39,862 bases of DNA from Candidatus Yonathbacteria bacterium CG_4_8_14_3_um_filter_46_25 (GCA_002788135.1 PFQT01000053.1:1-39862); one strand, 5' to 3'. Numbered from the stretch's first letter, positions 7,857 to 39,854 are shown. Notes: generated from the sequence alone by a model not told the origin. A program made the numbers and translations.

Positions 7857-7867
7857 GGAAAAGAACT

Positions 7868-21723: not shown

Positions 21724-21769
21724 ATTCACTTCAATGTTACATTAACTTACACTATTGAATGCGATATGT

Positions 21770-21816
21770 CTATCTCATTCCACTTGGGAGTCGGACTCCC
21801 AAGTGGAATGAGATAG
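21770..21816. repeat. Perfect 47-bp palindrome, REP-like core CACTTGGGAGTC-G-GACTCCCAAGTG
   Basis: 23-bp arms CTATCTCATTCCACTTGGGAGTC / GACTCCCAAGTGGAATGAGATAG. Confidence 0.92.
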
Positions 21817-22120
21817 TGTTGGTTAGTGGTTAATGACCCATATCAGGAATGCCAATGCATTTTACAGTGAACAACAAAGTACTATTTGATATTTAAGATC
21901 AATCCTCTGTTGAGACACCTGCTCATCAGTCAGATCATCATTTACCGTAAGCACCCGATACGCCAGATAGCCGAAAATCCCACCCGCAAGGAAGGTGCTA
22001 TATATTTTCTAAAACATCTCTTTATCTTTTCTTTAACATCGGGTTGATCATTGTTGATCGCTTGGAGGATGAACCTCAAAGAGCGCTGGGCACAGTAACG
22101 ACCAAATTTTGCAGGATATA

Positions 22121-23479
22121 TTAATAATTCCGCAAACGGCGCACTTTGTCATGATGGCGGATTTTTTCGAGTGCCTTTGCTTCGATCTGGCGGATGCGTT
22201 CACGGGTGACTCCGAACTCTTTTCCTACTTCCTCAAGGGTGTGCATCACACCGTCAATGAGTCCGTGGCGAAGCTCCAATATTTTGCGCTCTTTGAGCGA
22301 GAGGTCGTTCAAAATATCCTTGATCTGGTCGGTCAATATTCGTCGAGCCGAATCCTGATCGGGTGAGAGTATTTTATCGTCAGCGATAAATTCTCCGAGA
22401 GTTGATTTGTCCTCGTCATCACCGATCGGCTTCTCGAGAGAAACCGTACCGTGATCAATCTTCGTGATCGTGTGGATCTTCTCGACATCAACTCCCATTT
22501 CAGTCGCGATCTCTTCGGGAAGCGGTTCGCGGCCAAGGTCCTGCGAGAGCCGACGGAACACCTGCTTGTATTTCGCGATCGTCTCCACCATGTGAACTGG
22601 GATACGAATCGTGCGCGATTGGTCGGCAAGCGCACGCGTGATCGCCTGCCGAATCCACCATGTTGCGTACGTTGAGAACTTAAATCCTTTCGTCCATTCA
22701 AACTTATCAACCGCCTTAAAAAGCCCCAGGTTCCCTTCCTGAATAAGGTCAAGGAGTGTCAGGTCAGGACTTCGGCCGACATATTTTTTCGCTATTGAAA
22801 CAACAAGCCGCAAGTTTGCGCGAGCAAGGAGATTGCGCGCCTCTTCATCGCCCGCCTCGATTCGTTGTGCAAACTCACGCTCTTCCTGCGCCGTCAAAAG
22901 CGGATACTGCCCAATTTCGCGCAGATACATCTGGATCGAATCATATGAAGAATCGCGACCACCATAGGTGTATTTCTTCCCCAAAACTTCTTCATCCGCG
23001 GCATCCAAAAGTCCGCCGCTATCGAGGATGTCAATACCGGCATCGGAGAATCTTTCATAGAGAACATCGAGGAAAGTGATATTCTCCTCGATCTTCGGAA
23101 AATGCTTAAGCATCTCGTCATAAGTAATGAATCCGCGTGAGCGCCCCTTTTCAATGAGCACTTTGGAATTTTTTTCAAAATCGTCATGGCCGCGGGGCGC
23201 TTTTTTGCGGGGTGCTTCCTTCGCGGGAACTAGCTTCGCTTTCTCTGACTTAATCACTTTTTTCTTCGCAACGGGAGTTTTCTTTTTTGCGGAAACTGCT
23301 CGCGCGCTTACCGTGCCATTCCTTAGTGGAGAGGTAGTTTTGCGTTTTGTCGTAGACGCGCTCTTTCGCGGGGCGGTCTTCACATGAAGTTTCGACACAC
23401 TGCGAGCGCGAGCTGGTTTCTTTTTAAGCATTGTCTTTTTTACCGCGCTTGATTGCTTTATTTTTGCCTTGGTTGCCAT
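22121..23479 (-). CDS. rpoD: Primary sigma factor RpoD with Lys/Ala-rich N-terminal extension
   Basis: Region 1.1 [60 protein letters not shown]. Confidence 0.95.
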
Positions 23480-23533
23480 ACAATGAAAAAGTGAAGGTTA
23501 TATTATATGATATTGATAATTCTCTCCACGACA

Positions 23534-25270
23534 CTACTTCAACGCGTTGATCTTCTTCGAAATATCTTGACACTTCGCGAGCAAAGCGATCGACCGCTCT
23601 TTGTCGTTTTCGTGCTCAGCTTTTTTAAGATCCATCATCGTTTTTGAAAATTCTTCTTTTAACACCTCTTCGCGGAAATAGTGAAGAAGTTCTCTTACTT
23701 CGGCTTCCATATCTTCGGTGCCATCATAATATGCCTCTGCTTCGAATATACGTTCTTTTTGCTCTGTTTCGGCGATACTGGCGATATGCGAGATGTCTTT
23801 TGCGCCGAGGATGATGGCGTATTCGGTTCGCAGATATTTAACGTCAATCGACGGTTTTTTCATCTCATCCTGCCAGAGTATGATCCCGATGATCTTTCGT
23901 TCAACGAGCTCTTTACGGGTGGTGATCGTCGCGAGTATCTCTTGCTCTCGCGCTTTTTTATCCTGCTCATTATTTTTATTTTTCGCTCCGGTGGCGCGGA
24001 TTATTGATTCTTTCTTTTTAAGTTCTTCCCATATCGGATCCTCGGAGGTCATTTGCAACATTCGCGCAACCTCAGAAACGAAATATGCTTGCCGCATTTT
24101 TCCGGAAAGGGCGGCGATGTAGGGCAATACCGTTTCACTGATATTGAGACCAAGCGTGCGTTTATCGTGCCCTTGCGAGCTCAAAAGTTCGAGATAGTAG
24201 TCAATGACGTGCTTCGCGGAACCGACAAGCTCTTTCCAGCGCGCAGAATCATCGAGGATGAGCTCGGCCGGGTCGCGTCCGTCCGGCAAAGTTACGATAT
24301 GTACGTCCATACCGAGCGAAAGCGCGCTGTTAATCCCCCGCGCGGACGCCTTGATACCCGCCGCATCAGGATCGAACGCAAAAACAAGATTGTCGGTAAA
24401 TCGCTTGATAATCTTCAAGTGCCCTTCAGTAAGAGCTGTCCCTGACACCGCGACGGTGTTCTTTGCTCCCGCTTGATGAGACATAAGGAGATCCATCTGA
24501 CCTTCTACAAGAATACATGCGTCTTCACGCTTGATCTCCAAACGCGCTTTATCGAATCCATAGAGCACTCGCGACTTGTCGTAGAGATCGGTCGCCGGTG
24601 TGTTAACATACTTAGCGCCCCGATTCTCTTCTTCTCCGCCGAACAATCTTCCGGAGAAACCGATTACTCTGCCCGAAATGTCCGCGATAGGAAACATGAT
24701 CCTGCCGCGGAACCGATCGTAGTATCCCTTGTCACCTCGTACGACGAGTCCGACTTTCTCCATCTGCGCATCAGAGAATTTCTCTCCTCGCAGAAACGCA
24801 TGAAGCGAGTTCCATGAATCGCGCGCGTATCCGACTCGAAACTCTTTCGCGGTTTTCCCCGAAAGCCCGCGTTTCTTTAAGTAATCAATGGCTTCTTGTT
24901 CTTCTTTGAGACGCGCTTCAAAAAATTGCGTCGCCTTCTCGAGAATGTTGAACTGCAATTCAGCTTCCGTAGCTTTTTTTCGATCGAAGGTTGTTATTTT
25001 GATACCAGCCCGGTCGGCGAGTGTCTTGAGCGCGCCGGCGAAGTCGGTTCCTTCTATCTCTTCTACAAAACTGACAATGTCTCCACCTTTGCCGCATCCG
25101 AAACAGTGGAATGATTGCCGTGAAGGCGACACAAAGAATGAGGGTGTCTTTTCGCTATGGAACGGGCAGCGCGCTTTTAGGTTTGTGCCGGCGCTCTCAA
25201 GCTTGACATATGTGCCGATGACTTCGACGACATCAAGACGTGATTTTATTTGTTCCACTGTAGAAGACAT
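23534..25270 (-). CDS. dnaG: DNA primase
   Basis: CPFHSEKTPSF, CFGCGKGGD Zn finger, DRFRGRIMFPI, TOPRIM VEGQMD and FDPDAAG. Confidence 0.96.
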   Translation of the reverse strand: MSSTVEQIKSRLDVVEVIGTYVKLESAGTNLKARCPFHSEKTPSFFVSPSRQSFHCFGCGKGGDIVSFVEEIEGTDFAGALKTLADRAGIKITTFDRKKATEAELQFNILEKATQFFEARLKEEQEAIDYLKKRGLSGKTAKEFRVGYARDSWNSLHAFLRGEKFSDAQMEKVGLVVRGDKGYYDRFRGRIMFPIADISGRVIGFSGRLFGGEEENRGAKYVNTPATDLYDKSRVLYGFDKARLEIKREDACILVEGQMDLLMSHQAGAKNTVAVSGTALTEGHLKIIKRFTDNLVFAFDPDAAGIKASARGINSALSLGMDVHIVTLPDGRDPAELILDDSARWKELVGSAKHVIDYYLELLSSQGHDKRTLGLNISETVLPYIAALSGKMRQAYFVSEVARMLQMTSEDPIWEELKKKESIIRATGAKNKNNEQDKKAREQEILATITTRKELVERKIIGIILWQDEMKKPSIDVKYLRTEYAIILGAKDISHIASIAETEQKERIFEAEAYYDGTEDMEAEVRELLHYFREEVLKEEFSKTMMDLKKAEHENDKERSIALLAKCQDISKKINALK

Positions 25271-25371
25271 GAACGAAAAGTTTGCGCGTTACCGACCGCG
25301 CACGCACGCCAAGCGTGCATATCAGATAACTACTCATGCTATTCTCTCGCCCGAACACTGCAAGGCATCGC

Positions 25372-28300
25372 TCATTCCACAGGAGCGCTATCTTTTTCTC
25401 TGTCACTTGCCACCTTCTCTTTTATCCGGGCCCCTGTGCCTACCGGAATGAGTCTGCCTAATATGACATTCTCTTTGAGGCCTCGGAGTTGATCTTCGGT
25501 TCCGCGAATGGCAGTTTCGATGAGTACGCGGGTGGTGTTTTCGAATGAAGCGGCGGAAAGCCAGCTTTTGGTGGTGAGCGCGACGTCGGAAATCCCGAGT
25601 ACAATCGAGATCGCGGTCGCCACTTCTCCTCCTCCCGCTTTTACTTTTTCATTTTCAGCATTGAATACCGATTTGTCGACAACGGACCCGATAATGAATT
25701 TCGTATCCCCCGCTTCTTTTATTCTGACGCGAGCGAACATTTGTCGGACAATGACTTCAATATGTTTTTTACAGATCGATGCTCCCTGCAGTTCATATAT
25801 GCGATTCACTTCGTTAAGAATATAATCTTGGGTCGCGTCTTTCGTGCTATATTTGAAGAGTTCTGAAATATCAGCCGAACCGTCGGTTAGAATGTCGCCT
25901 TTCTTCACCGTATCGCCAACCTTGACGCGCGACATCCTTTTGAGAGGAACGATGTATTCCACGCGCTCCTTTCCTTTTGTTTTTGTTGCCGGATCAGCAA
26001 GGACAATGATTTTTTTGCCATCCATTGAATTTTCAACCTCGATGACCTCGCCATCGGAAACATTGATGACTGCCGCGCTCTTGGGGATTTTGCGTTCGAA
26101 TATCTCCTCAACGCGAGGAAGACCCTGCGTAATGTCTCCTCCGACGGACGCGATGCCTCCAGCATGAAACGTTCTCATGGTCAACTGAGTGCCCGGTTCT
26201 CCAATCGCCTGCGCCGCGACAATACCGACCGCTTCTCCAAGTTTAACAAGTTTGTTTCTTCCGGGATCGACACCGTAACATTTCTGGCAAACACCGTACA
26301 AAGTTTTACAGGTAAGCGGAGAACGGACGAACGCTTCGGTAACACCAGCCTCTTCCGCCTTGATCGCGTCCTTTTTTGAAACAATCGCTCCTTTTTTAAA
26401 CAAAACTTTTCCATCGACGCCAACAACGTCTTTCGCCAAAATTCTTCCGCGCAAATTCTTTGAAATCGGCGTTTCGAATCCGGCAAGATTTTGCTTCGTG
26501 ACACGCTTTCCTTCTTTTTCTCCGCAGTCTTCCTCAGTAATGATCGCGTCCTGTGCGACATCAACCAAACGCCTGGTAAGATATCCTGCCTTTGCGGTCT
26601 TGAGGGCGGTGTCGGCAAGACCTTTTCTCGAACCATGTGTCGTAACGAAATATTCTATCGGAGAAAGACCTTCTTTTGCCGACGGAATAATCGGAAAATC
26701 AATCGTTCTTCCCGCCGTATTGACGATAAGTCCTTTCATTCCGGCCATCTGGACAATCTGCGAGATCGATCCGCGCGCGCCAGAATGAAGCATGTCGCTC
26801 ACCGGCCCGTCTTTGGCAAGCGTTCCCGGGATGACGCGCTCTATCAAGTCGCGTGTTTCCTGCCAAACTGAAATGACCTTTCTGAAGCGTTCTTCATTTG
26901 CGAGCAATCCTTCATCGTATTGATCTTGTATCACCGCAATCTTCTTTCGCGCCCCTTCGATGATCCCTTTCTTCTCCGCAGGAACCTGAACCTCGTCAAT
27001 ACCCCAAGTGATCCCCGACTGAGTAACATATTTATAACCGAACGCTTTTATCTTATCGAGTATTTTTGGTGTTCCCTCCATGCCATAGCGTTCAATGATA
27101 TCTTCAACGATCTCTCCAAGTCCTCGTTTGTTCACCTCTTTGTTGATATAGGCAAAGTCGCTCGGTAAAACGCTATTGAAAAGAAGTCTTCCGACGGAGG
27201 TTTCAAAAAGTTTGCTTTCGTACGCGCCATATTTCGGACTATCGGTCGGCATCACCTTGATCTTTGATCGGAATCCGACCAGTCCAAAGTCATATGCCAT
27301 AATGGCGCTATTGGGATTGGGAAATACTTTCCCCTCGCCAACTTCGCCGTCAATCACTTTCGTCATCCAGTAACAACCGAGTACGATATCAAGTTCCGGA
27401 TTGACGATCGGATCTCCGTTTCCCGGTCCCAAAAGATTCTGATTGGATGCCATAAGGTCACGCGCTTCCTGTTGCGCTTCATCGGAGAGCGGAACATGCA
27501 CCGCCATCTGGTCTCCGTCAAAATCGGCGTTGAACGCGCGACAAACAAGCGGGTGCACCATAATCGCGTTTCCTTCGATTAAGATTGGATTGAATGCTTG
27601 AATACCCAAACGGTGAAGAGTCGGAGCGCGGTTTAAAAGAACAAATTTATTCTTTATCACCTCCTCGAGGATTGCCCATACGTCGGGGTGTCCGTCGTCG
27701 ATAATCCTTCCCGCTCCCCGTATATTGAAAGCGAGTTCCCGTTCAAGTATTTTTGATATCACGAACGGGCGGAAAAGTTCAAGCGCCATGTGCTTAGGGA
27801 GCCCGCACTGATTGAGCTTAAGATCGGGACCGACGACGATAACCGATCGTCCCGAATAGTCGACGCGCTTGCCGAGAAGGTTTTGTCTGAAAAGTCCTTG
27901 TTTCCCTTTGAGAGTGTCGGCGATCGACTTGAGTGCTCTTTTTTGCGATTGACTTACCGCCGCCGTTTGGATGCGCCGGATCGAATTATCGATAAGCGAG
28001 TCGACCGCTTCCTGCAAGATCCTTTTCTCATTGCGCAAGATCACTTCCGGTGCGCCTATTTCTTTTAACTTTTTAAGTCGGTTATTACGGTTTATGACTC
28101 GTCGATACAGATCGTTGACATCGGAGGTCGCATGCCGTCCGCCCTCAAGAGCCACCATTGGTCGAAGCGCCGGCGGCGTCACCGGAATCATGGTAAGAAA
28201 CATCCACTCGGGCATGACACCGGAGATAATAAGCGATTTTATCAACCCCAAACGTTTTCTCAATTTTGTCTTTTCAGCCGTTTTTGCTTTTTCCAATCTT

Positions 28301-29013
28301 TCTTCAAGAATTTCCTTGTAGCGATGCAAATCAAGCTCTCTAAAAATATTGTAGATCGCCTCGGCGCCGATACCCGCCTCAAAAGCAGTTCCGTATTTCA
28401 GTGAATACTTGCCATAAGTCGCCTCGTCAATGACATTACCCTCTTCGATCTCGCCCACCTCCTTCTTTGCGGTAAGGAGCAATTCCTTGAGTTTCCCTTT
28501 TGAACGCTCATCATTAACTCCTTTTACCTTTTCCTTATATTCGCTGTCGAGACGCTTCAAGATATTGGTTTTCTCCGTATCATTGACGTTAGTGATGATA
28601 TAACCGGCAAAGTACACGACTTTTTCGATATCGGCAACCGATAGGTTAAGCAAAAGCCCTATTCTCGACGGAACACCCCTCAAAAACCAAATGTGTGCGA
28701 CAGGACTCGCAAGCTCGATGTGTCCCATGCGCTCTCTTCGAACGATTGAACGAGTAACCTCGACGCCGCACTTTTCACAAATAATACCTTTATACCGAAT
28801 TCTTTTGTATTTTCCGCAATAACATTCGTAGTCCTTTTCCGGTCCAAATATTCGCTCGTCAAAGAGTCCGCCGCGCTCGCTCCGTTGGGTTCGATAGTTA
28901 ATCGTTTCCGGCTTGGTCACTTCTCCGTATGACCATTCTTTGACCCTTTCGGGAGAAGCAAGTTTGAGGACAATCGAATCAAAATCGGTGATTTTTCCTT
29001 TTGTTGTTTTCAT
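25372..29013 (-). CDS. rpoC: RNA polymerase beta' subunit
   Basis: NADFDGDQM catalytic motif, GKRVDYSGRSVI, GEPGTQLTMRTFH. Confidence 0.99.
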   Translation of the reverse strand: MKTTKGKITDFDSIVLKLASPERVKEWSYGEVTKPETINYRTQRSERGGLFDERIFGPEKDYECYCGKYKRIRYKGIICEKCGVEVTRSIVRRERMGHIELASPVAHIWFLRGVPSRIGLLLNLSVADIEKVVYFAGYIITNVNDTEKTNILKRLDSEYKEKVKGVNDERSKGKLKELLLTAKKEVGEIEEGNVIDEATYGKYSLKYGTAFEAGIGAEAIYNIFRELDLHRYKEILEERLEKAKTAEKTKLRKRLGLIKSLIISGVMPEWMFLTMIPVTPPALRPMVALEGGRHATSDVNDLYRRVINRNNRLKKLKEIGAPEVILRNEKRILQEAVDSLIDNSIRRIQTAAVSQSQKRALKSIADTLKGKQGLFRQNLLGKRVDYSGRSVIVVGPDLKLNQCGLPKHMALELFRPFVISKILERELAFNIRGAGRIIDDGHPDVWAILEEVIKNKFVLLNRAPTLHRLGIQAFNPILIEGNAIMVHPLVCRAFNADFDGDQMAVHVPLSDEAQQEARDLMASNQNLLGPGNGDPIVNPELDIVLGCYWMTKVIDGEVGEGKVFPNPNSAIMAYDFGLVGFRSKIKVMPTDSPKYGAYESKLFETSVGRLLFNSVLPSDFAYINKEVNKRGLGEIVEDIIERYGMEGTPKILDKIKAFGYKYVTQSGITWGIDEVQVPAEKKGIIEGARKKIAVIQDQYDEGLLANEERFRKVISVWQETRDLIERVIPGTLAKDGPVSDMLHSGARGSISQIVQMAGMKGLIVNTAGRTIDFPIIPSAKEGLSPIEYFVTTHGSRKGLADTALKTAKAGYLTRRLVDVAQDAIITEEDCGEKEGKRVTKQNLAGFETPISKNLRGRILAKDVVGVDGKVLFKKGAIVSKKDAIKAEEAGVTEAFVRSPLTCKTLYGVCQKCYGVDPGRNKLVKLGEAVGIVAAQAIGEPGTQLTMRTFHAGGIASVGGDITQGLPRVEEIFERKIPKSAAVINVSDGEVIEVENSMDGKKIIVLADPATKTKGKERVEYIVPLKRMSRVKVGDTVKKGDILTDGSADISELFKYSTKDATQDYILNEVNRIYELQGASICKKHIEVIVRQMFARVRIKEAGDTKFIIGSVVDKSVFNAENEKVKAGGGEVATAISIVLGISDVALTTKSWLSAASFENTTRVLIETAIRGTEDQLRGLKENVILGRLIPVGTGARIKEKVASDREKDSAPVE

Positions 29014-29036
29014 AAGATTGAGCGTTATAAATTCAA

Positions 29037-32000
29037 TTATTTTGTCCGAGTATCTTCGTCATGTTTTTGTAAAATAACATCGAGCGAGAGACCACGCAGG
29101 TTATACAAAAGCACATTGAACGATTCCGGCGTATTGGACTCGTGTATTTTCTCACCTTGAACGATCGCATCGAACGCACGCGACCGACCTACGATATCGT
29201 CCGATTTTATGGTGAGCATTTCGCGCAATATGTGCGCCGCGCCGTATCCTTCAAGCGCCCATACTTCCATTTCGCCAAAACGCTGACCACCTCCTTGTGC
29301 CTTGCCTCCAAGCGGTTGCTGTGTAATGAGCGAGTATGGTCCAATGGATCGCATATGTATCTTGTCTTCTACCATGTGATGCAATTTGAGTATGTACATA
29401 TAGCCAACAGCTATATTTTGTTCGAATGTCTGACCCGTTCTACCGTCAAAAAGTTTCATTTTCCCGTCAGCGCTGAATCCAGCCTTTTCCAATTCTTCTT
29501 TGATTTCTTCAACAGTCGCCCCCATGAACGCCGGAACGATCGCTTGATAATCGAGCGTATGCGCGGCAAGACCAAGATGAAGTTCAAGTATCTGTCCCAA
29601 ATTCATACGAGACGGAACGCCAAGAGGAGTCAAGATAACATCAACCGGCCTTCCGTCTTCCATGAACGGCATATCTTCTTCCGCGAGAACCGTTGAAACA
29701 ACACCCTTGTTCCCATGGCGTCCCGCAAGTTTGTCGCCGACCGTAACGTTGCGAAGTTGAGCGATTTCAACATGAATCTTCTTTATAATCCCAGACTCAA
29801 GATTGTCTCCGCGATCACGCGAAAAGACCTTGACGCCGACAATACGACCGCGTTTGCCGTGCGGCATCCGCAGTGATGTGTCCTTGACATCACGCGCTTT
29901 CTCTCCGAAGATCGAACGGAGAAGACGCTCCTCGGGAGTAAGTTCCGCTTCTCCCTTGGGAGTAATCTTGCCAACCAGAATATCTCCCGGCTGAACTTCG
30001 GCGCCGATGCGCACAATACCATCTTCGTCGAGATCTTTGAGTTTCGCTTCGCCAACATTCGGAATATCGTGAGTTGTTATTTCCGGCCCAAGCTTCGTGT
30101 CTCTCACATTGGCCGTAAACTCGTCCATATAAATGCTCGTGAAGCGTCCGTCTTTCACCACTTTTTCCGAGAGAATGATCGCGTCTTCATAGTTTGACCC
30201 TCCCCACGACATGAAAGCGACGAGCATATTTTGCCCGAGCGCGATCTGTCCGCCGTCAGACGACGAGGTGTCGACGAGTAGATCTCCTTTCTTTACTTTC
30301 TGTCCAAGAGAAACCGCTGGTCGTTGATGGAGCGCGGTAAAACTGTTCGTGCGCGAGTAATTCACCAGATCATAGGTATGTCTTGTTTCTTTGTTCCCTT
30401 TAAGAACGACTTTTTTCGCGTCAACCGCTTCGATCGTTCCATCTTCTGGAGCAAGGATGATCCTTCCCGTATCACGAGCCGCTTTTGCTTCCATGCCGGT
30501 AGCGACAAGCGGCGCTTGGGGGAGAATGGCCGGTGTCGCCTGTTTCTGCATGTTTGATCCCATGAGTGCTCGGTTGGCATCATTATGTTCAAGGAACGGG
30601 ATCATGGATGTTGCTATGGAAAACGCCTGACCGGGCGCAACATCCATCAATTGGACTTCGTCACGACCAACAAGAAGAGGACTGGTCTTTGATCTCGCTT
30701 CCACATATGGCTCCGAAATATTCCCCGACGCATCATAATGTGTCGCCGCGTGAGCGATGATGTATTGCTCCTCTTCAAGCGCGTCAAGATAAACAACTTC
30801 TCCGGTTATTTTTCCTTTTTCAACTTTTACGTATGGTGTTTCAATGATCCCGAAATCATTGACCCAAGCATACGTTGCGAATCGCAAGATAAGACCGATG
30901 TTCGGACCTTCGGGGGTATGGATGGGACACAGTCTTCCATAGTGCGATGAATGAACATCGCGCACCTCAAGCCCCGCGCGCTCACGAGTGAGACCGCCCG
31001 GTCCGAGCGCCGAGAGTGTTCGGAGGTGCTCTATTTCGTTCAATATATTGTACTGCCCCATGAACTGCGAAAGTTGGTTGGTGGCAAAAAATTCTTTGAT
31101 GCGCGCCTGAAGCGGTCGAGGACTAATGAATTGTATGGGCAGGACCGTGTCCGACTCAATGGTCGACATCCTATCCTGAACATTTCGTTTGATCTGCGAC
31201 ATGCCAACTCGCAGTTTTTGATGAAGAAGCTCGCCGACGGAACGAACCCGACGCGAACCGAGGTGGTCAATATCATCGGGAGCGGCCCCGGGTGTTATAT
31301 TGAGCTTGGCGATATGCGCGACGATGGCAACGACATCATCGCGAGAAATAGTGCGCTCGTTCGTCAATACGCTTTTGTCAGATTTCCTTCCGAACCGCTT
31401 GTTGAATTTGAAACGACCGACTTCGGAAAGATCATACCGTTCCTTGCTGAAAATCGAGTCGATAAATCCTTTCGCGTTGTCGGGAGTAACAAGCTCGCCG
31501 TCACGCAAACGTTTATGGATCTCAACATACGAATTTTCTACCGTCTTTGCCGTGTCTTTTTCAAGCGTCGCCTCTATCTGCGCGCGGGCGGCAGGATCGG
31601 CAAACGCCGCGATGATCTCTTTGTCATCTTTCATTCCAAGCACACGAAGCAAAAAAGTGACCGGAAATTTTCGCTTCTTATCGATCCGAACATAGATCAC
31701 GCCATCCGGCTCGGACTCAAGCTCGACCCACGCGCCACGAGACGGAATAATCTTTGCTCCAAAATACCGTTTTCCTTTAAGTTCCTGCACGGAGAACGAA
31801 ACCCCAAACGAACGAGCGAGTTGGGGAACGATGACACGTTCGACACCGTTGATAATGAATGTCCCATGAGGAGTCATCATCGGAAAATCCGCCATGAAGA
31901 TTTCTTGCTCTTTGCTCGTATTGAGCGTTTTGTTCTTCAGTCTGACGACCGCGCGAAGAGACGCTTCATAAGTGATCTTATTGTCTTTCGCGTAATACTC

Positions 32001-32207: not shown

Positions 32208-32348
32208 GCAAAAAAAGATACAGGGTAAAAACCCCTATTCTGGTAAGTAACAACTAGTTTATACTCAAAGTACGCAAAATAGCTCTGGAAACTAGCCCAC
32301 TATCAAAAAATACTCCAACAGTAACTCAATCTATGAGGATTGCACGAA

Positions 32349-32387
32349 AGTATACTCCCTGTATATTTTTTGTCAATATGTGGATAA
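32349..32387 (-). promoter_or_regulatory. rpoB promoter with adjacent DnaA box
   Basis: Minus strand: TTATCCACA (32387-32379), 2 nt, TTGACA (32376-32371), 16 nt, TATACT (32354-32349). Confidence 0.65.
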
Positions 32388-32524
32388 TCATACCCCGCCA
32401 TCAACGATGCCGTTGTTATTCCCCGCGTTTCCACTGCCACCCTCATGAATTAACTGTTACCCAAGAGACACGCAAGCAGTGATATGAATTTTACGATAAT
32501 GCGCTTGGTTATTGATATGAAAGT

Positions 32525-33178
32525 TTACCGCCTTCCTTGCCCTTTTCGCTTTTTTTTCCATCCTTCTATTTTTACATGGTCGCCGGAAAGCAGAACGCGT
32601 GGCACGCGGTATTTTTTACCTTTGTGAACAAATATATCAGGGCGCGTGTAAGTTTCACTTGCCGAAACGCGGTACTCTTCGATGGACTCGCTCTTTCCGA
32701 GAACTCCCGGCACGCGACGCGACACGGCATCGACCACCACCATCGCGGGTGCTTCGCCACCCGTGAGCACATATGGTCCGATCGAAACCTCTTCGGCGCG
32801 CAGTATTTTTTTAACACGCGCATCAATACCCTCATAACGGCCGGAGATGAGGACGATGTCGCGATATTCCTTGGCAAGCTTGTCGGCATACGCATTGGTG
32901 AATTGCTTCCCGGACGGCGAGAACAAGACGATTTTCACATTTCGCTTTCGCGCGCGCGCCTTGCCTACCGCCGCAATAATCGGTTCCGCTTGCATGACCA
33001 TCCCGGGACCTCCGCCGTACGGCCGATCATCTACCTTACGATGCTTATTTTTGGTGAAATCGCGCGGATTGTAAAAACGCACATCGACAAGTCCTGCCTC
33101 TCCGGCGCGGCCAAGGATCGACTCATTGAGATACCCTCTGATACTCTCGGGAAACAAGGTTATTACATGGAATGTCAT
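32525..33178 (-). CDS. trmD: tRNA (guanine-N1)-methyltransferase
   Basis: VDDRPYGGGPGMVM, GRYEGIDAR, SIGPYVLTGGE, YTRP, VLLSGDH. Confidence 0.96.
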   Translation of the reverse strand: MTFHVITLFPESIRGYLNESILGRAGEAGLVDVRFYNPRDFTKNKHRKVDDRPYGGGPGMVMQAEPIIAAVGKARARKRNVKIVLFSPSGKQFTNAYADKLAKEYRDIVLISGRYEGIDARVKKILRAEEVSIGPYVLTGGEAPAMVVVDAVSRRVPGVLGKSESIEEYRVSASETYTRPDIFVHKGKKYRVPRVLLSGDHVKIEGWKKKRKGQGRR

Positions 33179-33252
33179 TTATTTTTGTGTTTGATCAATT
33201 CTTGTACTCTAGCAAAAATGCGCAGGGTAGACAAATAAACAGATGCTAAACG

Positions 33253-33290
33253 AAAAACCGCCCTCGCGCCACATGGTGCAAAGGCGGATA
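33253..33290 (-). terminator. Probable intrinsic terminator after khpA
   Basis: Minus strand CCGCCTTTGCACC/GGCGCGAGGGCGG + TTTTT. Confidence 0.55.
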
Positions 33291-33318
33291 TTTCTTCCTT
33301 TTATTCCGAAAGGGAAAC

Positions 33319-33639
33319 CTAGGATTTCAGGTCCTCCATTGCCTGATCGATACTGTTTGCGGAATCGCTCCCGCTTCTACTGCCTCCTTCCGGTTCGTTG
33401 ATCTTGAGATTCACACGCGCGTTGTTTTTCATACCAACTATGCGGAGAAGAGTACGGATCGCTTTGGCGGTATTACCCGATCGTCCGATGACCTTACCCA
33501 TGTCATCTTTATTGACATCAAGAGTGACCAACACTCCCATTTCGTCAACATCACGCTTGACTTTCACGTCGCTTGGGTTATCAACCAACGCCTTGACCAC
33601 GTACTCGAGAAATATTACATCGCTTTCTTCTGAAGACAT
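33319..33639 (-). CDS. khpA: KH-domain RNA-binding protein (KhpA/YlqC)
   Basis: LEYVVKALVDNP, DDMGKVIGRSGNTAKAIRTLL; lies between rpsP and trmD. Confidence 0.88.
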   Translation of the reverse strand: MSSEESDVIFLEYVVKALVDNPSDVKVKRDVDEMGVLVTLDVNKDDMGKVIGRSGNTAKAIRTLLRIVGMKNNARVNLKINEPEGGSRSGSDSANSIDQAMEDLKS

Positions 33640-33920
33640 TGCAACCTAAGTACTTAAACTTAAATAACTTATTCCATGCAGTTGCTCGACCACATCCAAA
33701 CTGCTGAAGATAATTGTATAAAAAAAACACAGACAGTCAACCCCTTGTACCAACAATGTCGCTTCTGCTTCACGTTTTTATAGCTACCAACGGAGCAATT
33801 GCCAAAGAACGGTATCTGACAGTGATATAAACTTTTGCAACGAAAATACGATAGTATTGGTGCGCGGACAAGTTGGTGTTATTGGCGATTGCCACAGGTG
33901 AACACAGCGCGCGCCCAACT

Positions 33921-34322
33921 CTACTTTTCTTCTTTCTTTCCCGCAATAGAAGTATCTTTGGCGGCAACTGCTGGTTTTTCTTCTCCGCCGGCTGATGAAT
34001 TTTCAGCTTTCGATGCGGCTTCGACTTTCTTATCCCCTTCTTTCTTTATCGGGCTCTTTTTAGGAAGCACGTTGACTTTTTTGCCCTCGATCACCTTTTC
34101 CGTAACAAAAATATTGTGTACCGTGTCGGAGAGTTTCGCACCAACCGACATCCAGTGGAGTGCTCGCTCCTTGTTTATTTGAGGGGTTCCAAAGCGCGCG
34201 TTATATGAACCAACAACTTCGACATGATTGCCGCTTTTTGGACCCGTATGGGAATCAACGACAACAAGCCGAAACGACGGATCGTTCTTTCTCCCCACTC
34301 GTTGTAATCGTATCTTTAACAT
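33921..34322 (-). CDS. rpsP: 30S ribosomal protein S16 with C-terminal extension
   Basis: MLKIRLQRVGRKNDPSFRLVVVDS, W..VGAKLSDTV. Confidence 0.95.
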   Translation of the reverse strand: MLKIRLQRVGRKNDPSFRLVVVDSHTGPKSGNHVEVVGSYNARFGTPQINKERALHWMSVGAKLSDTVHNIFVTEKVIEGKKVNVLPKKSPIKKEGDKKVEAASKAENSSAGGEEKPAVAAKDTSIAGKKEEK

Positions 34323-34434
34323 TGGGTGCAATACTAACAGAACGACGGGTAAAGGTCAATATGCGCATGCGCACGAATGGTGTTGTAGATAGACTTATAG
34401 ACGCAGAGCTTATAAGATATTACAATACAGATAC

Positions 34435-34680
34435 ATGTTTTTCCCGAGCAACACTACCGAACACGCGCCGATCGTCATACCGACTCATTTTCTTTGGGTC
34501 GGCTTGCTTGCGATGCTTATACTATTTATGATCATCAGCACTGTTCTTGTATATCACTGGGTAACGTACGGGTACAAAGCCGCAACAACGAGTATTGCGG
34601 GCATTGTTTATTTTTCCGGCTCGGTCCTTTTTGTCGGCATTACGATGATCGCAATCATATCTTATGGAATTTCATTATGA
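34435..34680 (+). CDS. Small two-TM membrane protein
   Basis: Two hydrophobic helices around YHWVTYG; ATGA overlap with the next gene. Confidence 0.75.
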   Translation: MFFPSNTTEHAPIVIPTHFLWVGLLAMLILFMIISTVLVYHWVTYGYKAATTSIAGIVYFSGSVLFVGITMIAIISYGISL

Positions 34681-35219
34681 TCAAACTTGATGAAAATGAA
34701 AAAATAATCCTCGAGATACGGAAACACTGGTTCCTGCTTGTGGCTGAATCGTTCTTTCTCGTATTCCTTGCCACCATTCCGTTCATAGTATTCAAAGGAA
34801 TAAGCATCACCGGCTTTCTGCGATTCATAACCTTCCAGGGAAGTGGTACATCTCTGTATGTTGCGATCTCCTCCGTGTGGCTTCTTTTTGTGTGGGTCAC
34901 ATTTTTTGTCATCTGGACGGATTACTATCTCGACATTCTCATCATCACCGACAAAAAAGTGATCGACATTGAGCAAAAAGGTCTTTTCTATCGTGAAATA
35001 TCAACATTTCGACTAGACAAGATACAAGACATCACCGTCAAAGTGAACGGCCTCATCCCCACATTCTTCGGTTTTGGCGATATTTATATTCAGACCGCGA
35101 GCGAGGAACAATCATTTGCCGCCAAAGGTGTTCCACACCCCGACAAGATCAAATGGCAGATCCAGGACGAACAAAACAAGGCGCTTGATGAATTACGACA
35201 CGTGTGGATACGAAAATAG
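34677..35219 (+). CDS. Membrane protein with bacterial PH (bPH_2/YdbS-like) domain
   Basis: EKIILEIRKHW, two TMs, IITDKKVIDIEQKGLF, KIQDITV, FGFGDIYIQTA. Confidence 0.85.
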   Translation: MIKLDENEKIILEIRKHWFLLVAESFFLVFLATIPFIVFKGISITGFLRFITFQGSGTSLYVAISSVWLLFVWVTFFVIWTDYYLDILIITDKKVIDIEQKGLFYREISTFRLDKIQDITVKVNGLIPTFFGFGDIYIQTASEEQSFAAKGVPHPDKIKWQIQDEQNKALDELRHVWIRK

Positions 35220-35271
35220 AAAAGAAAAAGACGGCACGCGCGGACGCTTGTGCCGTCAATCTTGAAACAAC

Positions 35272-35841
35272 CTAAACCATTGCCGACATCTCGTCGGCAA
35301 CCTCGTCGACGAGTCCGAACGCCACCGCCTCCTCGGCGGAAAACGATCTCTCGGCGTTCATCGCCGCAACAATCTCCGCCAATGAGCGCCCTGTGCGTTG
35401 CGTGAATATCGTGTATATCCTCCGCAATCTCTGGAGGACATAATCGATATTCTCGATCACCCGCGCTTGATCGAGCTCGACGGTTCCCGACTCGTTCATT
35501 CGGCTAATAATTCTGATATTCGCGGTGCTGTTGTGAATCACGATCTCGGCATGCCGCGCGATCATTCGCAGCCGACATGCCTGCAGTACCACACTCGCCA
35601 TCGAGTTCGCCGAACCGACAACAACGCCGACAACCGGCACCCCCGACATGCTGACAGTGTCGTAGATATCGAGCCCGTCGCGGACGTTCCCGCCGGAGCT
35701 CTTGATATAGAGTGTCGCTTCGTCTCCACCATGTTTCAGACGAAGCAACGCCTCTGCAACATAGTTCGCTGTGCGCTCATCTATGTTGCCATTCAACACT
35801 ATGATCCGCGACCGAAGTAGTCGCTCATGGACTTTATTCAT
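35272..35841 (-). CDS. Divergent ClpP-family protease
   Basis: GGAGG SD before ATG 35841; LYIKSSGGNV.DGLDIYD, ANSMASVV (Ser), VIHN (His), FSAEEAVAFGLVDEV. Confidence 0.85.
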   Translation of the reverse strand: MNKVHERLLRSRIIVLNGNIDERTANYVAEALLRLKHGGDEATLYIKSSGGNVRDGLDIYDTVSMSGVPVVGVVVGSANSMASVVLQACRLRMIARHAEIVIHNSTANIRIISRMNESGTVELDQARVIENIDYVLQRLRRIYTIFTQRTGRSLAEIVAAMNAERSFSAEEAVAFGLVDEVADEMSAMV

Positions 35842-35980
35842 GGAAATACCTCCGTTGCGTGCGTGCGCTATTGCACCGTGCTTCAAGTATGCTATACTAT
35901 AGTAAGCATTACCACTATTAGTGGTAATTGTCAACGGGTGTATCTTTACACTCGCATTATTCATTAAAATAAAAAATATT

Positions 35981-36244
35981 ATGATGTCAGAAGGAGTACC
36001 GCAAGACAGCGGGCAAACAAACGCGTTCCCCGCCGACAAAGATGAGAACGAAGAGAAGAATGAGAAAAAGAACGAGGACAGAAATAATGGACAAGCAACT
36101 GCTGTTCATGTTACTGGTGGTGCGGGTGGCGTCCCCCCGCAAGGAGACGGCACGGGGAAATTCATACGAGTCCATAAAGACGGCACGACCGAAAGAACGA
36201 ATAATCTGAAACCAGATGACAATTGGCCACCAGAGCACAATTAA
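35981..36244 (+). CDS. Small acidic/disordered hypothetical protein
   Basis: Open frame after an AT-rich leader, followed by hairpin + T-tract near 36270-36297; no recognisable motif. Confidence 0.55.
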   Translation: MMSEGVPQDSGQTNAFPADKDENEEKNEKKNEDRNNGQATAVHVTGGAGGVPPQGDGTGKFIRVHKDGTTERTNNLKPDDNWPPEHN

Positions 36245-36324
36245 TTTCCACCTTATCCGGAACAACATGTCCCGCCTTTAGCGGGATTTGTTTTTTGGAC
36301 AAAAACCACTATCATAAAAAAAAT

Positions 36325-38268
36325 ATGATTGATAATGACGCGCATTTTATCGGAACCATCAGGATCACCGCGCGTGGAGACGGATATGTTTCCCCTACCG
36401 GCAGAAGGGACGACAGCGTCAAAATAGACCACGTTGATCTCAATACCGCACTCCACGGCGACACGGTTAACGTATTCCGACATCCGAAAAAAACTGGGGG
36501 AGAAGAGCGTGGGGAAGTGATTGAGGTTATGAGGCGGACAAAAGATGTTTTTGCCGGCGTGTTGGAAAAAAATAACGGCTCGTATTTTTTCGTGCCTGAC
36601 GATCAGAAGATGTACATTGACATTCTCATCCCGGAGCAATCTCTTGCGGGAGCACGAAACAAAGAGAAGGTGGTCGTGCGCATCGCCAAATGGAACGACC
36701 CGAAAAAAAATCCGGAAGGAGAAGTAATCAAGGTGCTGGGGAAACCGGAAGATAACAACGTCGAAATGGAGTCAATCGTCTACGATAAAGGGTTTTTAAT
36801 CGAATTCTCAAACAAAGTGGAACGAGAAGCGCTCAAGATACAAGCTTCCGCGCGGCGCGATATCGAAGAGGAAGCGCCGAAGCGAAAAGACATGCGGGGT
36901 GTCACGACGTTCACCATCGACCCAGCAACGGCAAAAGATTTCGATGACGCTATCTCGTTCCGTGAATTGCCGAATGGGAATATCGAGGCGGGAGTGCATA
37001 TCGCTGATGTTACCCACTATGTACGGCCCGGATCGATAATCGAAGATGAGGCGCGGAAACGCGCAACATCAATCTATCTTGTCGATCGGACGATCCCCAT
37101 GCTTCCCGAAGAACTCTCAAACGACATCTGCAGTCTGAAGCCGAACGAAGATCGGCTGGCATTCTCGGCGATATTTACATTCAAAAAAGATTCCCTCGCG
37201 CCCGGCGCAAATCCCGAAATCATCGATCAATGGATTGGCGAAACGATCATCAATTCAGACAAACGTTTTTCCTACGAGGAGGCGCAGGGTGTTTTGGATG
37301 GAAAAGACGGGCCGTTTCGTCATGAACTCAAGACCCTTAATGTGTTGGCAAAAAACTTGCGTGCTGAGCGCATCCGTGCCGGAGCGATCATGATTGAACA
37401 AGACGAGATAACATTTTCGCTCGATGACCGAGGAAAACCCGAGAGTGTGGCAATTAAGGTTCATGGCGACACGAATGAGCTCATTGAGGAGTTGATGCTC
37501 CTTGCCAATCGCGCGGTTGCTGAAGCAATGACTGGCACGCCGGAGACCAAAAAGCGTACATTCATTTTTCGCATACACCCGAAACCCGAAAGCGACCGAA
37601 TCGCCGAACTTGCGGAATTTCTCGGAACGCTCGGATACTCGCTCAAGCCGGGACTCACGAACCTCTCCCATGGCCTCAACACCATCCTCAAGCAATCGGT
37701 GGGTACCGAGGTCGAGCATATCGTCCATACCGTTACCATCCGTTCATTGCAAAAGGCGGTGTATTCAACACAAAATGTCGGGCACTTCGGACTCGCGTTC
37801 AAATATTACACCCATTTCACCTCCCCTATCAGGCGCTACCCGGACATGATGACGCACCGGCTCGTAAAAACATATCTTGCGGGAAAAACGGTGCCGCCTA
37901 ATGAAGCGGAATGCTATGACAGCGACGCGCGGCACTCAAGCGAGATGGAACAACGCGCCGCGGAAGCCGAGCGCGATTCGATCAAGTACAAACAGATCGA
38001 GTTCATGATTGAGCGTGGCGGAGAAACATACGAGGGGATCATTTCCGGCGTAACTGATTGGGGTATCTATGTCGAAGAAAAAACAACCAAAGCAGAGGGA
38101 CTTATTCGTCTGCGCGACATCGGCAACGATTATTACGTCCTTGATAAAAAGAATCACGCCATCGTCGGAGAGAAGCGCGGGAAGCGATATCGTCTCGGAG
38201 ATACGGTAAAAGTCAGAATAAAAGACGCAAACTTGGAACGTCGAACGGTAGATTATCTACTAGTGTAG
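36325..38268 (+). CDS. rnr: Ribonuclease R (RNB family)
   Basis: TIDPATAKDFDDAIS, HFTSPIRRYPD, cold-shock domains and C-terminal S1. Confidence 0.95.
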   Translation: MIDNDAHFIGTIRITARGDGYVSPTGRRDDSVKIDHVDLNTALHGDTVNVFRHPKKTGGEERGEVIEVMRRTKDVFAGVLEKNNGSYFFVPDDQKMYIDILIPEQSLAGARNKEKVVVRIAKWNDPKKNPEGEVIKVLGKPEDNNVEMESIVYDKGFLIEFSNKVEREALKIQASARRDIEEEAPKRKDMRGVTTFTIDPATAKDFDDAISFRELPNGNIEAGVHIADVTHYVRPGSIIEDEARKRATSIYLVDRTIPMLPEELSNDICSLKPNEDRLAFSAIFTFKKDSLAPGANPEIIDQWIGETIINSDKRFSYEEAQGVLDGKDGPFRHELKTLNVLAKNLRAERIRAGAIMIEQDEITFSLDDRGKPESVAIKVHGDTNELIEELMLLANRAVAEAMTGTPETKKRTFIFRIHPKPESDRIAELAEFLGTLGYSLKPGLTNLSHGLNTILKQSVGTEVEHIVHTVTIRSLQKAVYSTQNVGHFGLAFKYYTHFTSPIRRYPDMMTHRLVKTYLAGKTVPPNEAECYDSDARHSSEMEQRAAEAERDSIKYKQIEFMIERGGETYEGIISGVTDWGIYVEEKTTKAEGLIRLRDIGNDYYVLDKKNHAIVGEKRGKRYRLGDTVKVRIKDANLERRTVDYLLV

Positions 38269-38301
38269 TTAGTTTAGGATATTGAAAAGTTCATGAATTA
38301 C

Positions 38302-38330
38302 CCCACTTGGGAGTCCGACTCCCAAGTGGG
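38302..38330. repeat. Perfect 29-bp palindrome, same 25-bp core in the opposite orientation (central C)
   Basis: CCCACTTGGGAGTC-C-GACTCCCAAGTGGG. Confidence 0.92.
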
Positions 38331-38451
38331 TGGAGTTTTGGTACTATATTGAAATTTCACCATACTGTATTACGATGCCCCTCTACACGAAATAACCACG
38401 TCCCTGAGTTCCAGAATTAATTACAACGCTTGTTTAGTAAAATAGACAAGT

Positions 38452-38592
38452 ATGAAATATGTAAATAATCGAAAACATAAAGATGGTAATCCTTTCTCGC
38501 TTTGCGAAAGGAGTATTATCGAAGTAAGATGGTGCCGAAATTTTAAAAACATAACCGAGATGACCAAAAAGTTACTAACCTTTTCCACATAG
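38452..38592 (+). pseudogene. Possible N-terminal HTH fragment of an IS30-like transposase
   Basis: MKYVNNRKHKDGNPFSLCERSIIEVRWCRNFKNITEM resembles the IS30 'LS..ER..I' start; truncated. Confidence 0.4.
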
Positions 38593-38601
38593 GTTATATT
38601 A

Positions 38602-39506
38602 GACCAACTGCTCAATAATATTCCAACCAGTCAACTTAAAATATCGGCATTGTTTCTCTGGTTATGTTTCAGATTATAAAGTCCAGCCACAATTACAAAT
38701 TTTGCGTTATAGGTTTTGAGAGCATTTCTAAATCTGTGAGATAATATTCTCCACTGTTTGAGCGAAGTAAAAACATGTTCAACCACAATACGTATATGGC
38801 TGTGTTTTTTGTTGTGTACCTGCTCTTTCTTGGTAAGTAGCTGATACTTTAAAGCATTGTACGGAAGATGCAGATTAGTGCCCAAATATCCCATTTCAAT
38901 TTTACCTCTGCTTGATCATACAAATTTTTGTCATGAAAATTTCCTGACATTGATTTTGACACATACTTGATTCGTCCTTTAATATCAACCACTACTTATG
39001 TTTTAACGGTTTGTTTCTTTTTCTTTCCGGAATATCCCGAACCGGATCGTCTTTCTGTTTCCTGTTCAGTGGCATCAATAAAAAATTGTATTTCTTCTTT
39101 GGTAAGATGTATTTTTTCAATCGTAATTTTCTTCATTTTTCGGTAGAGTATCGGTTCCAGTTTTTTGAAATACCGGCAGACCCGTGAATCATCAATATGA
39201 AAAAAACTCTGCCAACATCATATGACTCATATATGTGCGAGTATACAAAAAATACATAGCAACCATCTGTTCAAATGATGGTTTGTATTGAATGCCTCTA
39301 CCCACCGCCCTTTTTCTTGGGTAGGCTGATTTTCTTTTGTGTTCTGCTTCTTGCCACAATAGTTCAAGTTCTTTGATTAAATCGTTAAACTGCTTCGGTG
39401 AAATACCAAAAAAATGACCAAAGACCTTTGGTCTTTGGGAGAGTTTGCGTATATTCATACCCTGTATTATGTATTATACTACAATATATTAGTTAAGCAG
39501 TGGGTC
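38602..39506 (-). mobile_element. IS5-family (ISL2-like, DDE_Tnp_4) insertion sequence, ~905 bp, degenerate
   Basis: Imperfect TIRs GACC(A/C)ACTGCT(C/T)AA flanked by TA on both sides; contains a fragmented transposase. Confidence 0.75.
38631..39458 (-). pseudogene. Fragmented DDE_Tnp_4 transposase
   Basis: Pieces in different frames: FFGISPKQF.., FIDATEQ, YSGKKKKQTVKT*, GYLG, RIVVEHVFTSLKQWRILSHRFR. Confidence 0.8.
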
Positions 39507-39569
39507 TAATATATGTTCATGAGATAAAGGGTGTATGATCATCTCATCACCGGAACGCGACCGCAAGAA

Positions 39570-39790
39570 GCTGGATCGCCGCCAACATCTCATGGCTCCG
39601 CACGGCGCGCTTCCTCGGTTACGCTCCTGGATTGAACCCGATTAAGTATCTGTGGTCGACGACATCTCGGCAATCTTTCCGATCTCTCCGTAATCGGTAC
39701 GGCGTTGCGTTCCTATCGAAGAAAGGTCGGGAACCTCGACCTTCTCGGCGGGTTCCTGTGAGCGAACGGACTCTTTATATAACATCTGTG
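39570..39790 (+). pseudogene. Remnant of an IS630-family transposase C-terminus
   Basis: 39611-39658 translates FLGYAPGLNPIKYLWS, matching the IS630 P.Y(S/A)P.LNPIE..W motif with the catalytic E lost; left boundary approximate. Confidence 0.55.
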
Positions 39791-39854
39791 GCAAAGTACA
39801 TCACTTGGGAGTCGGACTCCCAAGTGATGTACTTTGCCACAGATGTTATATAAA
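39774..39854. repeat. Perfect 81-bp palindrome (40-bp arms) with the same 25-bp core
   Basis: TTTATATAACATCTGTGGCAAAGTACATCACTTGGGAGTC-G-GACTCCCAAGTGATGTACTTTGCCACAGATGTTATATAAA. Confidence 0.92.

Follow-up and report, generated by a model that had tools for sequence, protein, structure and literature searches.

Perfect palindromes with mirrored flanks, linked to a RAYT-like Y1/HUH gene, in a Candidatus Yonathbacteria genome

The stretch of DNA analysed here, hereafter the window, is 39,862 nucleotides long and comprises the entire contig C62 of Candidatus Yonathbacteria bacterium CG_4_8_14_3_um_filter_46_25 (GCA_002788135.1). The parent genome consists of 828,423 bases in 65 contigs and is rated 98.96% complete; its size of 828 kb fits the 0.5-1.1 Mb range of its order. 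The window carries three copies of a palindrome, CACTTGGGAGTC-S-GACTCCCAAGTG (S, G or C), here termed family A (Table 1). Family A is tied to a gene on another contig, C49, whose product resembles the REP-associated tyrosine transposases (RAYT; REP, repetitive extragenic palindrome), and its symmetry can continue into the flanking DNA. The three copies match the pattern without a mismatch at 21781-21805, 38304-38328 and 39802-39826, and all lie outside long open reading frames (ORFs). The pattern had no match in 100 dinucleotide-preserving shuffles of the window. An inverted-repeat scan found arms free of mismatches, 23, 14 and 40 nt long, on either side of an unpaired G, C and G in copies 1, 2 and 3, respectively, which corresponds to symmetry of 11, 2 and 28 bp past the shared 12-bp arm. 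A previous reading of the sequence alone (the sequence-only reading) had reported these three intergenic palindromes with a 1-nt centre and the same extensions, and both are present as described. Folded as single-stranded DNA, the copies reach -25 (z-score -10.2), -15.1 (-5.7) and -44.5 kcal/mol (-16.9). Copy 1 lies between rpoD and sufB/D, 51 nt upstream of the sufB/D start.

Table 1. Coordinates of palindromes, genes and further features (positions without a contig or locus prefix refer to the window)
Feature	Location	Strand	Remarks
Copy 1, family A	21770..21816	.	47 nt in total; 12-bp arms and unique 11-bp mirrored extension
Copy 2, family A	38302..38330	.	core plus 2 bp CC/GG; 35 nt past the stop codon of the RNase R-like gene
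Copy 3, family A	39774..39854	.	81-nt perfect palindrome as assembled; 8 bp from contig end
Family-B palindrome	7781..7809	.	TAGCTATAAAGGTC-c-GACCTTTATAGCTA; GTC-S-GAC apex; its gene lies on C31
Family-A RAYT-like gene	C49:11678-12412	-	Y1_Tnp 35.5 bits (cut-off 23), E 1.2e-8
Family-B RAYT-like gene	C31:8738-9661		Y1_Tnp match; family-B palindromes
Family-C RAYT-like gene	C47:4816-5532		Y1_Tnp match; family-C palindromes
RAYT-like locus with A' variant	L031:5664-6404		locus of a metagenome-assembled genome
sufB/D	20362-21729	-	flanks copy 1
rpoD (sigma-70)	22121-23479	-	flanks copy 1
RNase R-like gene	36223-38268	+	precedes copy 2
Decayed insertion sequence	38595-39513	-	between copies 2 and 3; context only, outside the palindrome family

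A whole-genome search that allowed up to four substitutions in the palindrome identified 12 family-A sites in the 828-kb genome, with total arm lengths of 21, 13, 12, 15, 18, 19, 11, 13, 23, 14, 40 and 6. Eight of nine exact-core copies lie outside ORFs of at least 80 aa, and one, on contig C20, lies inside an ORF without a Pfam hit. Many copies are positioned 0-4 nt past a stop codon, and most are 3' of genes; the neighbouring genes are of mixed kinds (Mur ligases, RNase R, a methylase, insertion-sequence debris). The foot of family A reads Y-CACTTGG (Y, pyrimidine). Variation within the arms includes a compensated change to T/A at position 1 (C49:11655), and the innermost pair of some copies is T..G, equivalent to G.U in RNA. 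A C-run before the core, matched by a G-run after it, is common to the copies on C11, C41 and C20, to window copy 2 and to the copy that follows the RAYT-like gene. The copies on C11 and C35 are alike for about 55 nt past the core at 85-87% identity and are related on the other side as well. Additional partial half-arms stand in direct tandem at C20, C35 and C64. As a separate observation, C35:4060-4160 carries beside its palindrome a stretch of roughly 45 nt that is 85% identical to the 3' end, stop codon included, of a Mur ligase gene on C11 (C11:30185-30265); either the element took flanking DNA along, or this segment was duplicated.

Family A shares its centre with two further families. 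Among the perfect odd palindromes of the genome with arms of at least 8, 29 of 51 are centred on GTC-S-GAC; at six control centres of the same type the arm never exceeded 7. These 29 palindromes make up families A, B (..AAAGGTC-S-GACCTTT..) and C (..TAGGTC-S-GACCTA..). Family B amounts to roughly 30 copies with arms of at least 7 by hand count, often arranged in pairs 21-33 nt apart, and one copy is located in the window. When folded as a hairpin, the GTC-S-GAC apex would be the loop together with its closing pairs. We also observed a fourth palindrome family, a 44-nt perfect palindrome with the centre CGATCG (..TTACCACTATTTTCCACGATCGTGGAAAATAGTGGTAA..), in at least six copies (C41:14652-14695, C21, C46, C13 and L061:8289-8332 among its sites), which forms mosaics with the arm of copy 3.

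The Pfam family Y1_Tnp has five matches in the genome. One is an IS200-type gene of some 150 aa; the other four, on C40, C31, C47 and C49, are longer and RAYT-like. The sequence-only reading was right that the window itself holds no such enzyme. On C49, a family-A palindrome precedes the gene (centre 12379, 33 nt into the open frame, just before the likely ATG), a near-exact copy lies inside it (centre 12159, in frame, encoding ..LGSPTPK..), and a third follows it (centre 11655, 3 nt past the stop codon, with 19-nt arms). This layout of palindromes upstream, inside and downstream is repeated at C31, whose gene is flanked by and contains family B, at C47 with family C, and at L031 with the variant A'. 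Each family is thus tied to its own Y1 gene, which is the gene/repeat pairing that defines REP/RAYT systems, and the earlier assignment to a REP-like class linked to HUH transposases holds. A comparable arrangement, with three groups of REP doublets forming hairpins (REPINs), each near its own RAYT gene in one Pseudomonas genome, is described by Bertels & Rainey 2011 (PMC3116915).

Structurally, the RAYT-like protein is 224-235 aa long, with 224 aa for C49, and the HUH histidines and the tyrosine (His84, His86, Tyr144) are invariant in the four paralogues. The AlphaFold model of the C49 protein has a mean pLDDT of 60, with core blocks at 74-87, and the palindrome-encoded peptide begins in a low-confidence loop at residues 59-67. 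In a Foldseek search with this model, all 24 matches at E <= 0.001 were of the IS608 or ISDra2 TnpA type, with E. coli TnpA-REP (4ER8) at rank 18. By analogy, the C49 protein would recognise and cut the family-A hairpin as single-stranded DNA. A target for a protelomerase, or a hairpin telomere, is unlikely for a palindrome of 12 dispersed copies tied to a Y1 gene. We further note that the in-frame palindromes (C49, C31, C47, L031 and L107) sit in a variable loop before the HUH motif, that the families agree in codon phase (xGT-CSG-ACx, read as G-R-T or S-P-T), and that the family-B palindrome encodes the peptide K-G-R-T-F.

Of the 41 genomes of the order, two carry family A when up to two mismatches are allowed: the present one and G023, which has four copies of the compensated variant GAGTT-S-AACTC; the RAYT-like clade is present in 27 of the 41. 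The exact core (24 specified bases, innermost pair pyrimidine/purine) occurs at 26 loci in species-representative genomes, or 19 assemblies by count of accession prefixes, all with record titles naming groups of Patescibacteria, the Candidate Phyla Radiation (CPR), and at a further 50 metagenome loci. In a search with a profile of the four paralogues, 16 of the 55 unique copies, at 10 loci, had a RAYT-like frame no further than 400 nt away, which answers the suggestion of the sequence-only reading to look for Y1/HUH genes beside copies. In 11 of 11 RAYT-like loci taken from other genomes, the gene is preceded at 30-140 nt by a perfect palindrome whose sequence is specific to the lineage, and in nine of them a downstream palindrome lies within about 45 nt; the two share a core at eight of these loci (hand reading), and arm lengths are often unequal between copies at one gene. 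The RAYT-like Y1/HUH module is widespread in Patescibacteria. The presence of an identical core in distant lineages, and its absence from close relatives, suggests that a gene-plus-hairpin module has moved horizontally.

Extension of the arms was assessed in a pooled set of 94 copies from 47 sources, 55 of them unique by their 30-nt flanks. The tally was limited to 40 copies whose 12-bp arms are perfect and whose flanks measure 40 nt or more, and omitted copy 3, which is too near the contig end. Symmetry continued for 0 bp in eight copies, 1 bp in six, 2 bp in nine, 3 bp in four, 5 bp in three, 6 bp in four and 7 bp in two; the longest extensions, of 8, 9, 11 and 12 bp, were each seen in one copy. 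The 13th pair is mostly pyrimidine:purine and, from a reading of the flanks, looks like element sequence. Among solitary perfect copies, 17 of 32 are extended by at least 3 bp against 0.5 expected, with a binomial tail of about 1e-22 that is overstated because related copies are not fully independent. After the first mismatch, complementarity falls to 97 of 407 positions (23.8%), as expected by chance; it follows that the mirrored stretch adjoins the core without a gap and breaks off sharply. Gene-adjacent copies seldom show such extension. An extension of at least 3 bp was found in 1 of 16 gene-adjacent copies compared to 20 of 39 solitary copies (Fisher p = 0.0019), and in 1 of 10 compared to 17 of 32 when only perfect copies are counted (p = 0.026). 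A further case is provided by L107, where a palindrome with 15-nt arms lies in frame within a RAYT-like ORF and encodes ..FNEGRTFIE... Since five homologues (L100, L104, L105, L108 and C31) match this region in length, its symmetry arose by substitution in place and not by insertion. As a whole, arm extension is real across the phylum and statistically solid.

We compared the three window copies with Logan contigs, which are independent k=31 assemblies of four groundwater runs and, being contigs, cannot show arm-length polymorphism. Copy 1 is spanned by long contigs in all four runs with 0-1 differences. At copy 2 the contigs break at 38301/38330, and at copy 3, which no listed contig crosses, they stop at 39803/39813. 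The CC/GG pair of copy 2 also occurs at C11, C41, C20 and the copy after the C49 gene; its apparent 2-bp extension is inherited element sequence, because these copies have the C-run in common. The view that the extended sequence differs at every site is consequently correct for copy 1, the only window copy that is both unique and independently verified, and fails for copy 2, whose pair is shared, and for copy 3, whose arm is multi-copy.

The 28 bp of copy 3, the most striking case of the sequence-only reading, are also its least secure. The 28-nt arm adjoins the core in two long metagenome contigs, L061 and L095, within a shared stretch of at least 190 nt; these contigs are 99.97-99.99% identical to the genome contigs C1 and C26. 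Its partner differs between them, being the left flank of C42 in L061 and the end of an insertion sequence in L095. In addition, a 43-nt piece (39797-39839) has a depth of 100 in run X1 against 26.8 for the genome, or about 3.7-fold, and its loose ends lead into both C42 flanks and a third context. C42 and copy 3 have 44 nt in common at 100% identity, and 13 nt of the arm of copy 3 recur at C42. The arm, found beside other partners and at raised depth, is thus a multi-copy sequence, and it is not locus-specific whether the 81-nt palindrome is real or mis-joined.

For copy 3 only, an assembly mis-join at a repeated palindromic node is nearly an even prospect. The true loci would then have shorter extensions, for example 13 bp (C62 left arm with C42 right flank) and 6 bp. 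The position of copy 3 at 8 bp from the end of C62, the start of C42 at 101 nt before its own copy, the shared 44 nt, the attachment of the arm to other partners in contigs of the same population, the Logan stops and the raised unitig depth all point in this direction, as does a fold-back of the C42 left flank seen in run X7. Set against this, the last 8 nt of C62 run into the known context of the arm and do not mirror the left flank, so a plain fold-back up to the end of the contig does not account for copy 3. Moreover, a contig of left flank, arm and half-core is present at genome depth in four of four runs, and at least three arm copies exist, which makes a genuine inverted pair possible.

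Taken together, we consider it probable that a REP-type hairpin and a RAYT-like Y1/HUH gene form a module whose flanks are mirrored by a templated step. In function and layout, family A and the C49 gene are a REP/RAYT system, an assignment to this type that we hold with high confidence. The enzyme would recognise and cut the single-stranded hairpin at or near the GTC-S-GAC apex, as do IS200/IS605 TnpA and E. coli TnpA-REP, and would then move or copy it. The strand may fold back on its perfect 12-bp stem, whereupon one flank would be written as the complement of the other, either by fill-in of a tailed hairpin intermediate during mobilisation or by a template switch at the palindrome during replication. 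The data fit both routes alike. What is shown comprises the palindrome family, its tie to the C49 gene, and the surplus and sharp ends of the extensions; the catalysis by the C49 protein, the cut site and the copying step are inferred, and templated copying as the source of the arm extensions is put forward tentatively, as a possible explanation. It is favoured over the alternatives because of the excess of extensions, their sharp edges and the chance-level pairing beyond them. A templated step predicts arms without mismatches, sharp edges, lengths that vary between copies and an occasional slip, and all four are seen; the half-arms found in tandem on C20, C35 and C64 have the appearance of such copying slips. 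The fold-back or template switch proposed by the sequence-only reading thus agrees with the extension excess, the sharp edges and L107, while its copying step stays conditional.

Published work offers points of contact for such a step. Parts of Bertels & Rainey 2011 (PMC3116915) describe a putative REPIN intermediate as a 5'-tailed hairpin and call the regaining of symmetry a key issue. Template switching that lengthens arm identity in quasi-palindromes is treated as an established mutation type in two further sources (PMC7202029, PMC3820800). More doubtfully, the enzyme might nick the GTC-S-GAC apex and self-primed fold-back synthesis might complete the strand, rebuilding a perfect palindrome at each mobilisation or repair event. 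Each such 'rolling-hairpin' event could mirror a variable stretch of donor or local flank.

Several observations weigh against the explanation that we prefer. Part of the extension is inherited, as seen in the C-run at C11, C41, C20, copy 2 and the post-gene copy, in GTACAT and a 13-nt stretch common to C42 and copy 3, and in the paralogy of C11 and C35 on both flanks; each extension may in part come from a donor copy, like the C-run and the GTACAT subfamily. Extension is not universal, since family B mostly ends at 7-8-bp arms. The palindromes of C11, C41 and L041, which are extended by at least 3 bp, abut a stop codon and exclude it, so that insertion of a ready-made extended palindrome fits as well as growth in place; exact abutment of extended palindromes was seen at C11, C41, L034, L039 and L041, none of which includes more than 2 nt of a stop codon. 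An empty-site comparison found no alignable intergenic DNA among three genomes of the same family, in two of which SufB was located (74% identical), on contigs that run out roughly 40 and 505 nt before the sufB match on its upstream side. With regard to the protein, the NCBIfam family REP_Tyr_transpos (NF047646) scored below its cut-off of 80 for C49, C47 and C40 (24.3, 45.2 and 73.5 bits), although it was the best-scoring NCBIfam family for all three. A sequence search of the PDB with the single C49 protein found no transposase, and a four-sequence profile reached E values of 0.13-0.35 only. Finally, we found no GTAG/CGTC-type tag and no conserved motif outside the palindromes, where the commonest outer trinucleotides, TAA, AAA and TTT, occur five times each among 82 sides, and family A consists of single 12-1-12 palindromes and not of REPIN doublets.

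As an alternative, a 25-27-nt element could insert at the centre of existing target palindromes or hairpins, such as terminator stems, and the outer symmetry would then be old. There is precedent for this, as passages of PMC3733652 report REPs inside larger palindromes in A. variabilis, T. roseum and H. neapolitanus, together with hundreds of unoccupied target palindromes in T. roseum. REPs embedded in this way and compensatory arm changes in REPINs are both on record (passages of PMC3733652 and PMC3116915), and the statement of the sequence-only reading that REP arms are normally conserved is too strong. In the present data, some flanks, such as the 12 bp of L037, resemble the A- and T-tracts of a bidirectional terminator, and the many copies 0-4 nt past a stop codon lie where hairpins are common. 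We nevertheless regard insertion into older palindromes as improbable. It predicts unpaired loop remnants followed by renewed pairing, whereas pairing after the first mismatch is at the chance level (97/407). By our own arithmetic, fewer than one loop-less perfect palindrome of 18-24 nt is expected in 828 kb. The extensions here are not G+C-rich stems followed by T runs. In an intrinsic-terminator test, none of copies 1-3 was terminator-like on the gene strand; copies 2 and 3 were unscored, and copy 1 scored on the + strand only, with both neighbouring genes on the - strand. L107, lastly, gained its symmetry without insertion.

Selection offers another route to long arms, by which the hairpins would act as RNA or DNA structures (stabilisers of mRNA 3' ends, terminators or protein sites) and would be lengthened by compensatory point mutations. 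Copies do cluster just 3' of genes, compensated changes occur (T/A at C49:11655, GAGTT-S-AACTC in G023), and the T..G innermost pairs of some copies would be retained in RNA as G.U; passages of Di Nocera et al. 2013 (PMC3733652) argue for RNA roles from such G-T pairing. Stepwise compensation, however, predicts ragged stems and resumed pairing, whereas the arms are perfect and their edges sharp. The terminator test also speaks against it, and copies lie in frame within ORFs, transposase-like genes included. Selection on such structures would moreover leave the tie to Y1 transposase genes unexplained, and we judge it an unlikely source of the extensions. Operator sites of a dimeric regulator, unrelated to transposition, would suit the perfect 12-1-12 dyad and the copy 51 nt upstream of sufB/D, but are very improbable in view of neighbouring genes that share no theme, the 3' position of most copies, three families each with its own Y1 gene, the tandem half-arms and the patchy distribution across distant lineages.

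Returning to the REP/RAYT assignment, family A resembles the REPtrons of E. coli, Pseudomonas and Stenotrophomonas in several respects. It is a short hairpin repeat dispersed in intergenic DNA, its Y1/HUH transposase-like gene is bordered by its own repeat, several gene/repeat pairs occur per genome, variation is compensated and preserves the hairpin, and copies lie near gene 3' ends. In contrast to the imperfect textbook REP, its arms are perfect with a single unpaired centre base, and the lower stem is variable in length and often unique to the site. Further differences are the in-frame copy within the transposase-like gene, the protein of 224-235 aa under the REP_Tyr_transpos cut-off, the Patescibacteria host and the patchy spread of an identical core. 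REPIN-like doublets are found elsewhere, in the family-B pairs and in the relative L102, which has a true inverted doublet. The lack of a tag and of an imperfect stem, the lack of a family-A doublet and the missed RAYT equivalog threshold set the system apart from a plain member of the REP/RAYT group.

The IS200/IS605 TnpA enzymes (IS608, ISDra2) are the best structural matches to the predicted C49 protein, and they recognise single-stranded hairpins at both ends of their gene, where a palindrome is also found here. The two hairpins of IS608, left and right, are imperfect and differ from each other, and a tetranucleotide at the hairpin foot guides cleavage. Here, in contrast, the same perfect palindrome stands at both gene ends, and, unlike in IS200/IS605 elements, the gene occurs once per family in the assembly while the hairpin alone is multiplied. 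The extensions resemble quasi-palindrome template switching, in which the nascent strand copies the other arm, giving perfect arms and sharp edges with a length that can stay unchanged. Quasi-palindrome mutation is rare, affects points or clusters and concerns imperfect repeats, whereas the copying proposed here would recur at one repeat family and yield arms up to 12 bp past the core, or 28 bp if copy 3 is real. A third relative is the group of HUH Rep-nicked rolling-hairpin and rolling-circle origins (parvovirus ends, circovirus and geminivirus stem-loops), which have a conserved loop, variable stems and copy-back from the 3' end. Unlike these, the present system involves no replicon, and the apex nick is only proposed.

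The remaining features of the window provide context. The decayed insertion sequence has 21-nt terminal inverted repeats (38595-38615 and 39493-39513, 90%) and a fragment of a DDE_Tnp_4 transposase (38631-38894; Pfam, E 1.5e-10). As it has these repeats of its own, the palindromes were rejected as its termini. Between it and copy 3, a fragment that appears G+C-rich by eye (39530-39773) ends exactly at the start of the left arm of copy 3; an IS630-like origin of 39530-39770, suggested by an 'NPIxYLW' motif, was dropped, as the ORF at 39632-39853 has no Pfam family. In an Rfam scan of the window, only a tRNA-Trp gene reached the gathering score. Positions 6000-9800 have 54-65% G+C against 46% for the genome and carry three long minus-strand ORFs (401, 415 and 227 aa) without a Pfam family; this region may be foreign DNA. 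Next to a peroxiredoxin gene, a perfect 21-bp inverted repeat with a 4-nt loop (185-230; AAAATGCCACAGGCGGCATCC / GGATGCCGCCTGTGGCATTTT) has A and T runs on either side and resembles a bidirectional terminator of the usual kind.

The assembly is broken up by an insertion sequence approximately 1.36 kb long (L067:148-1510), which occupies positions 1-89 of the window and the ends of at least 11 other contigs. Twelve contig ends match it on the left and 11 on the right, counting the window's first 89 nt. It comprises two overlapping frames with helix-turn-helix-like and integrase-core-like motifs by eye, and these motifs suggest the IS3/IS481 type. In two metagenome contigs it lies 10-12 nt away from a family-A palindrome. 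Palindromes and a high-copy insertion sequence fragment the assembly, and false or ambiguous joins at contig ends are possible, as at copy 3.

REP/RAYT systems are well known in Proteobacteria, and how their hairpins are copied is still an open question. In a limited literature search, we found no description of a RAYT/REPIN system in Patescibacteria. By a term search, Quentin et al. 2018 (PMC6006769) does not mention Parcubacteria, Saccharibacteria, Microgenomates or TM7, and published catalogues of REP/RAYT repeats may already list perfect-palindrome REPs. This Patescibacteria clade offers clean material, with perfect palindromes, a shared apex, three pairs of repeat family and enzyme gene in one 0.83-Mb genome, and sharp-edged extensions at roughly one in two solitary copies. 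Should these extensions be the trace of fold-back copying, the mechanism could be tested directly with one small protein and a few oligonucleotides. Rolling-hairpin propagation, if true, would explain how REP/REPIN elements regain symmetry from an asymmetric intermediate, and the elements would then be a source of new inverted duplications beside and inside genes.

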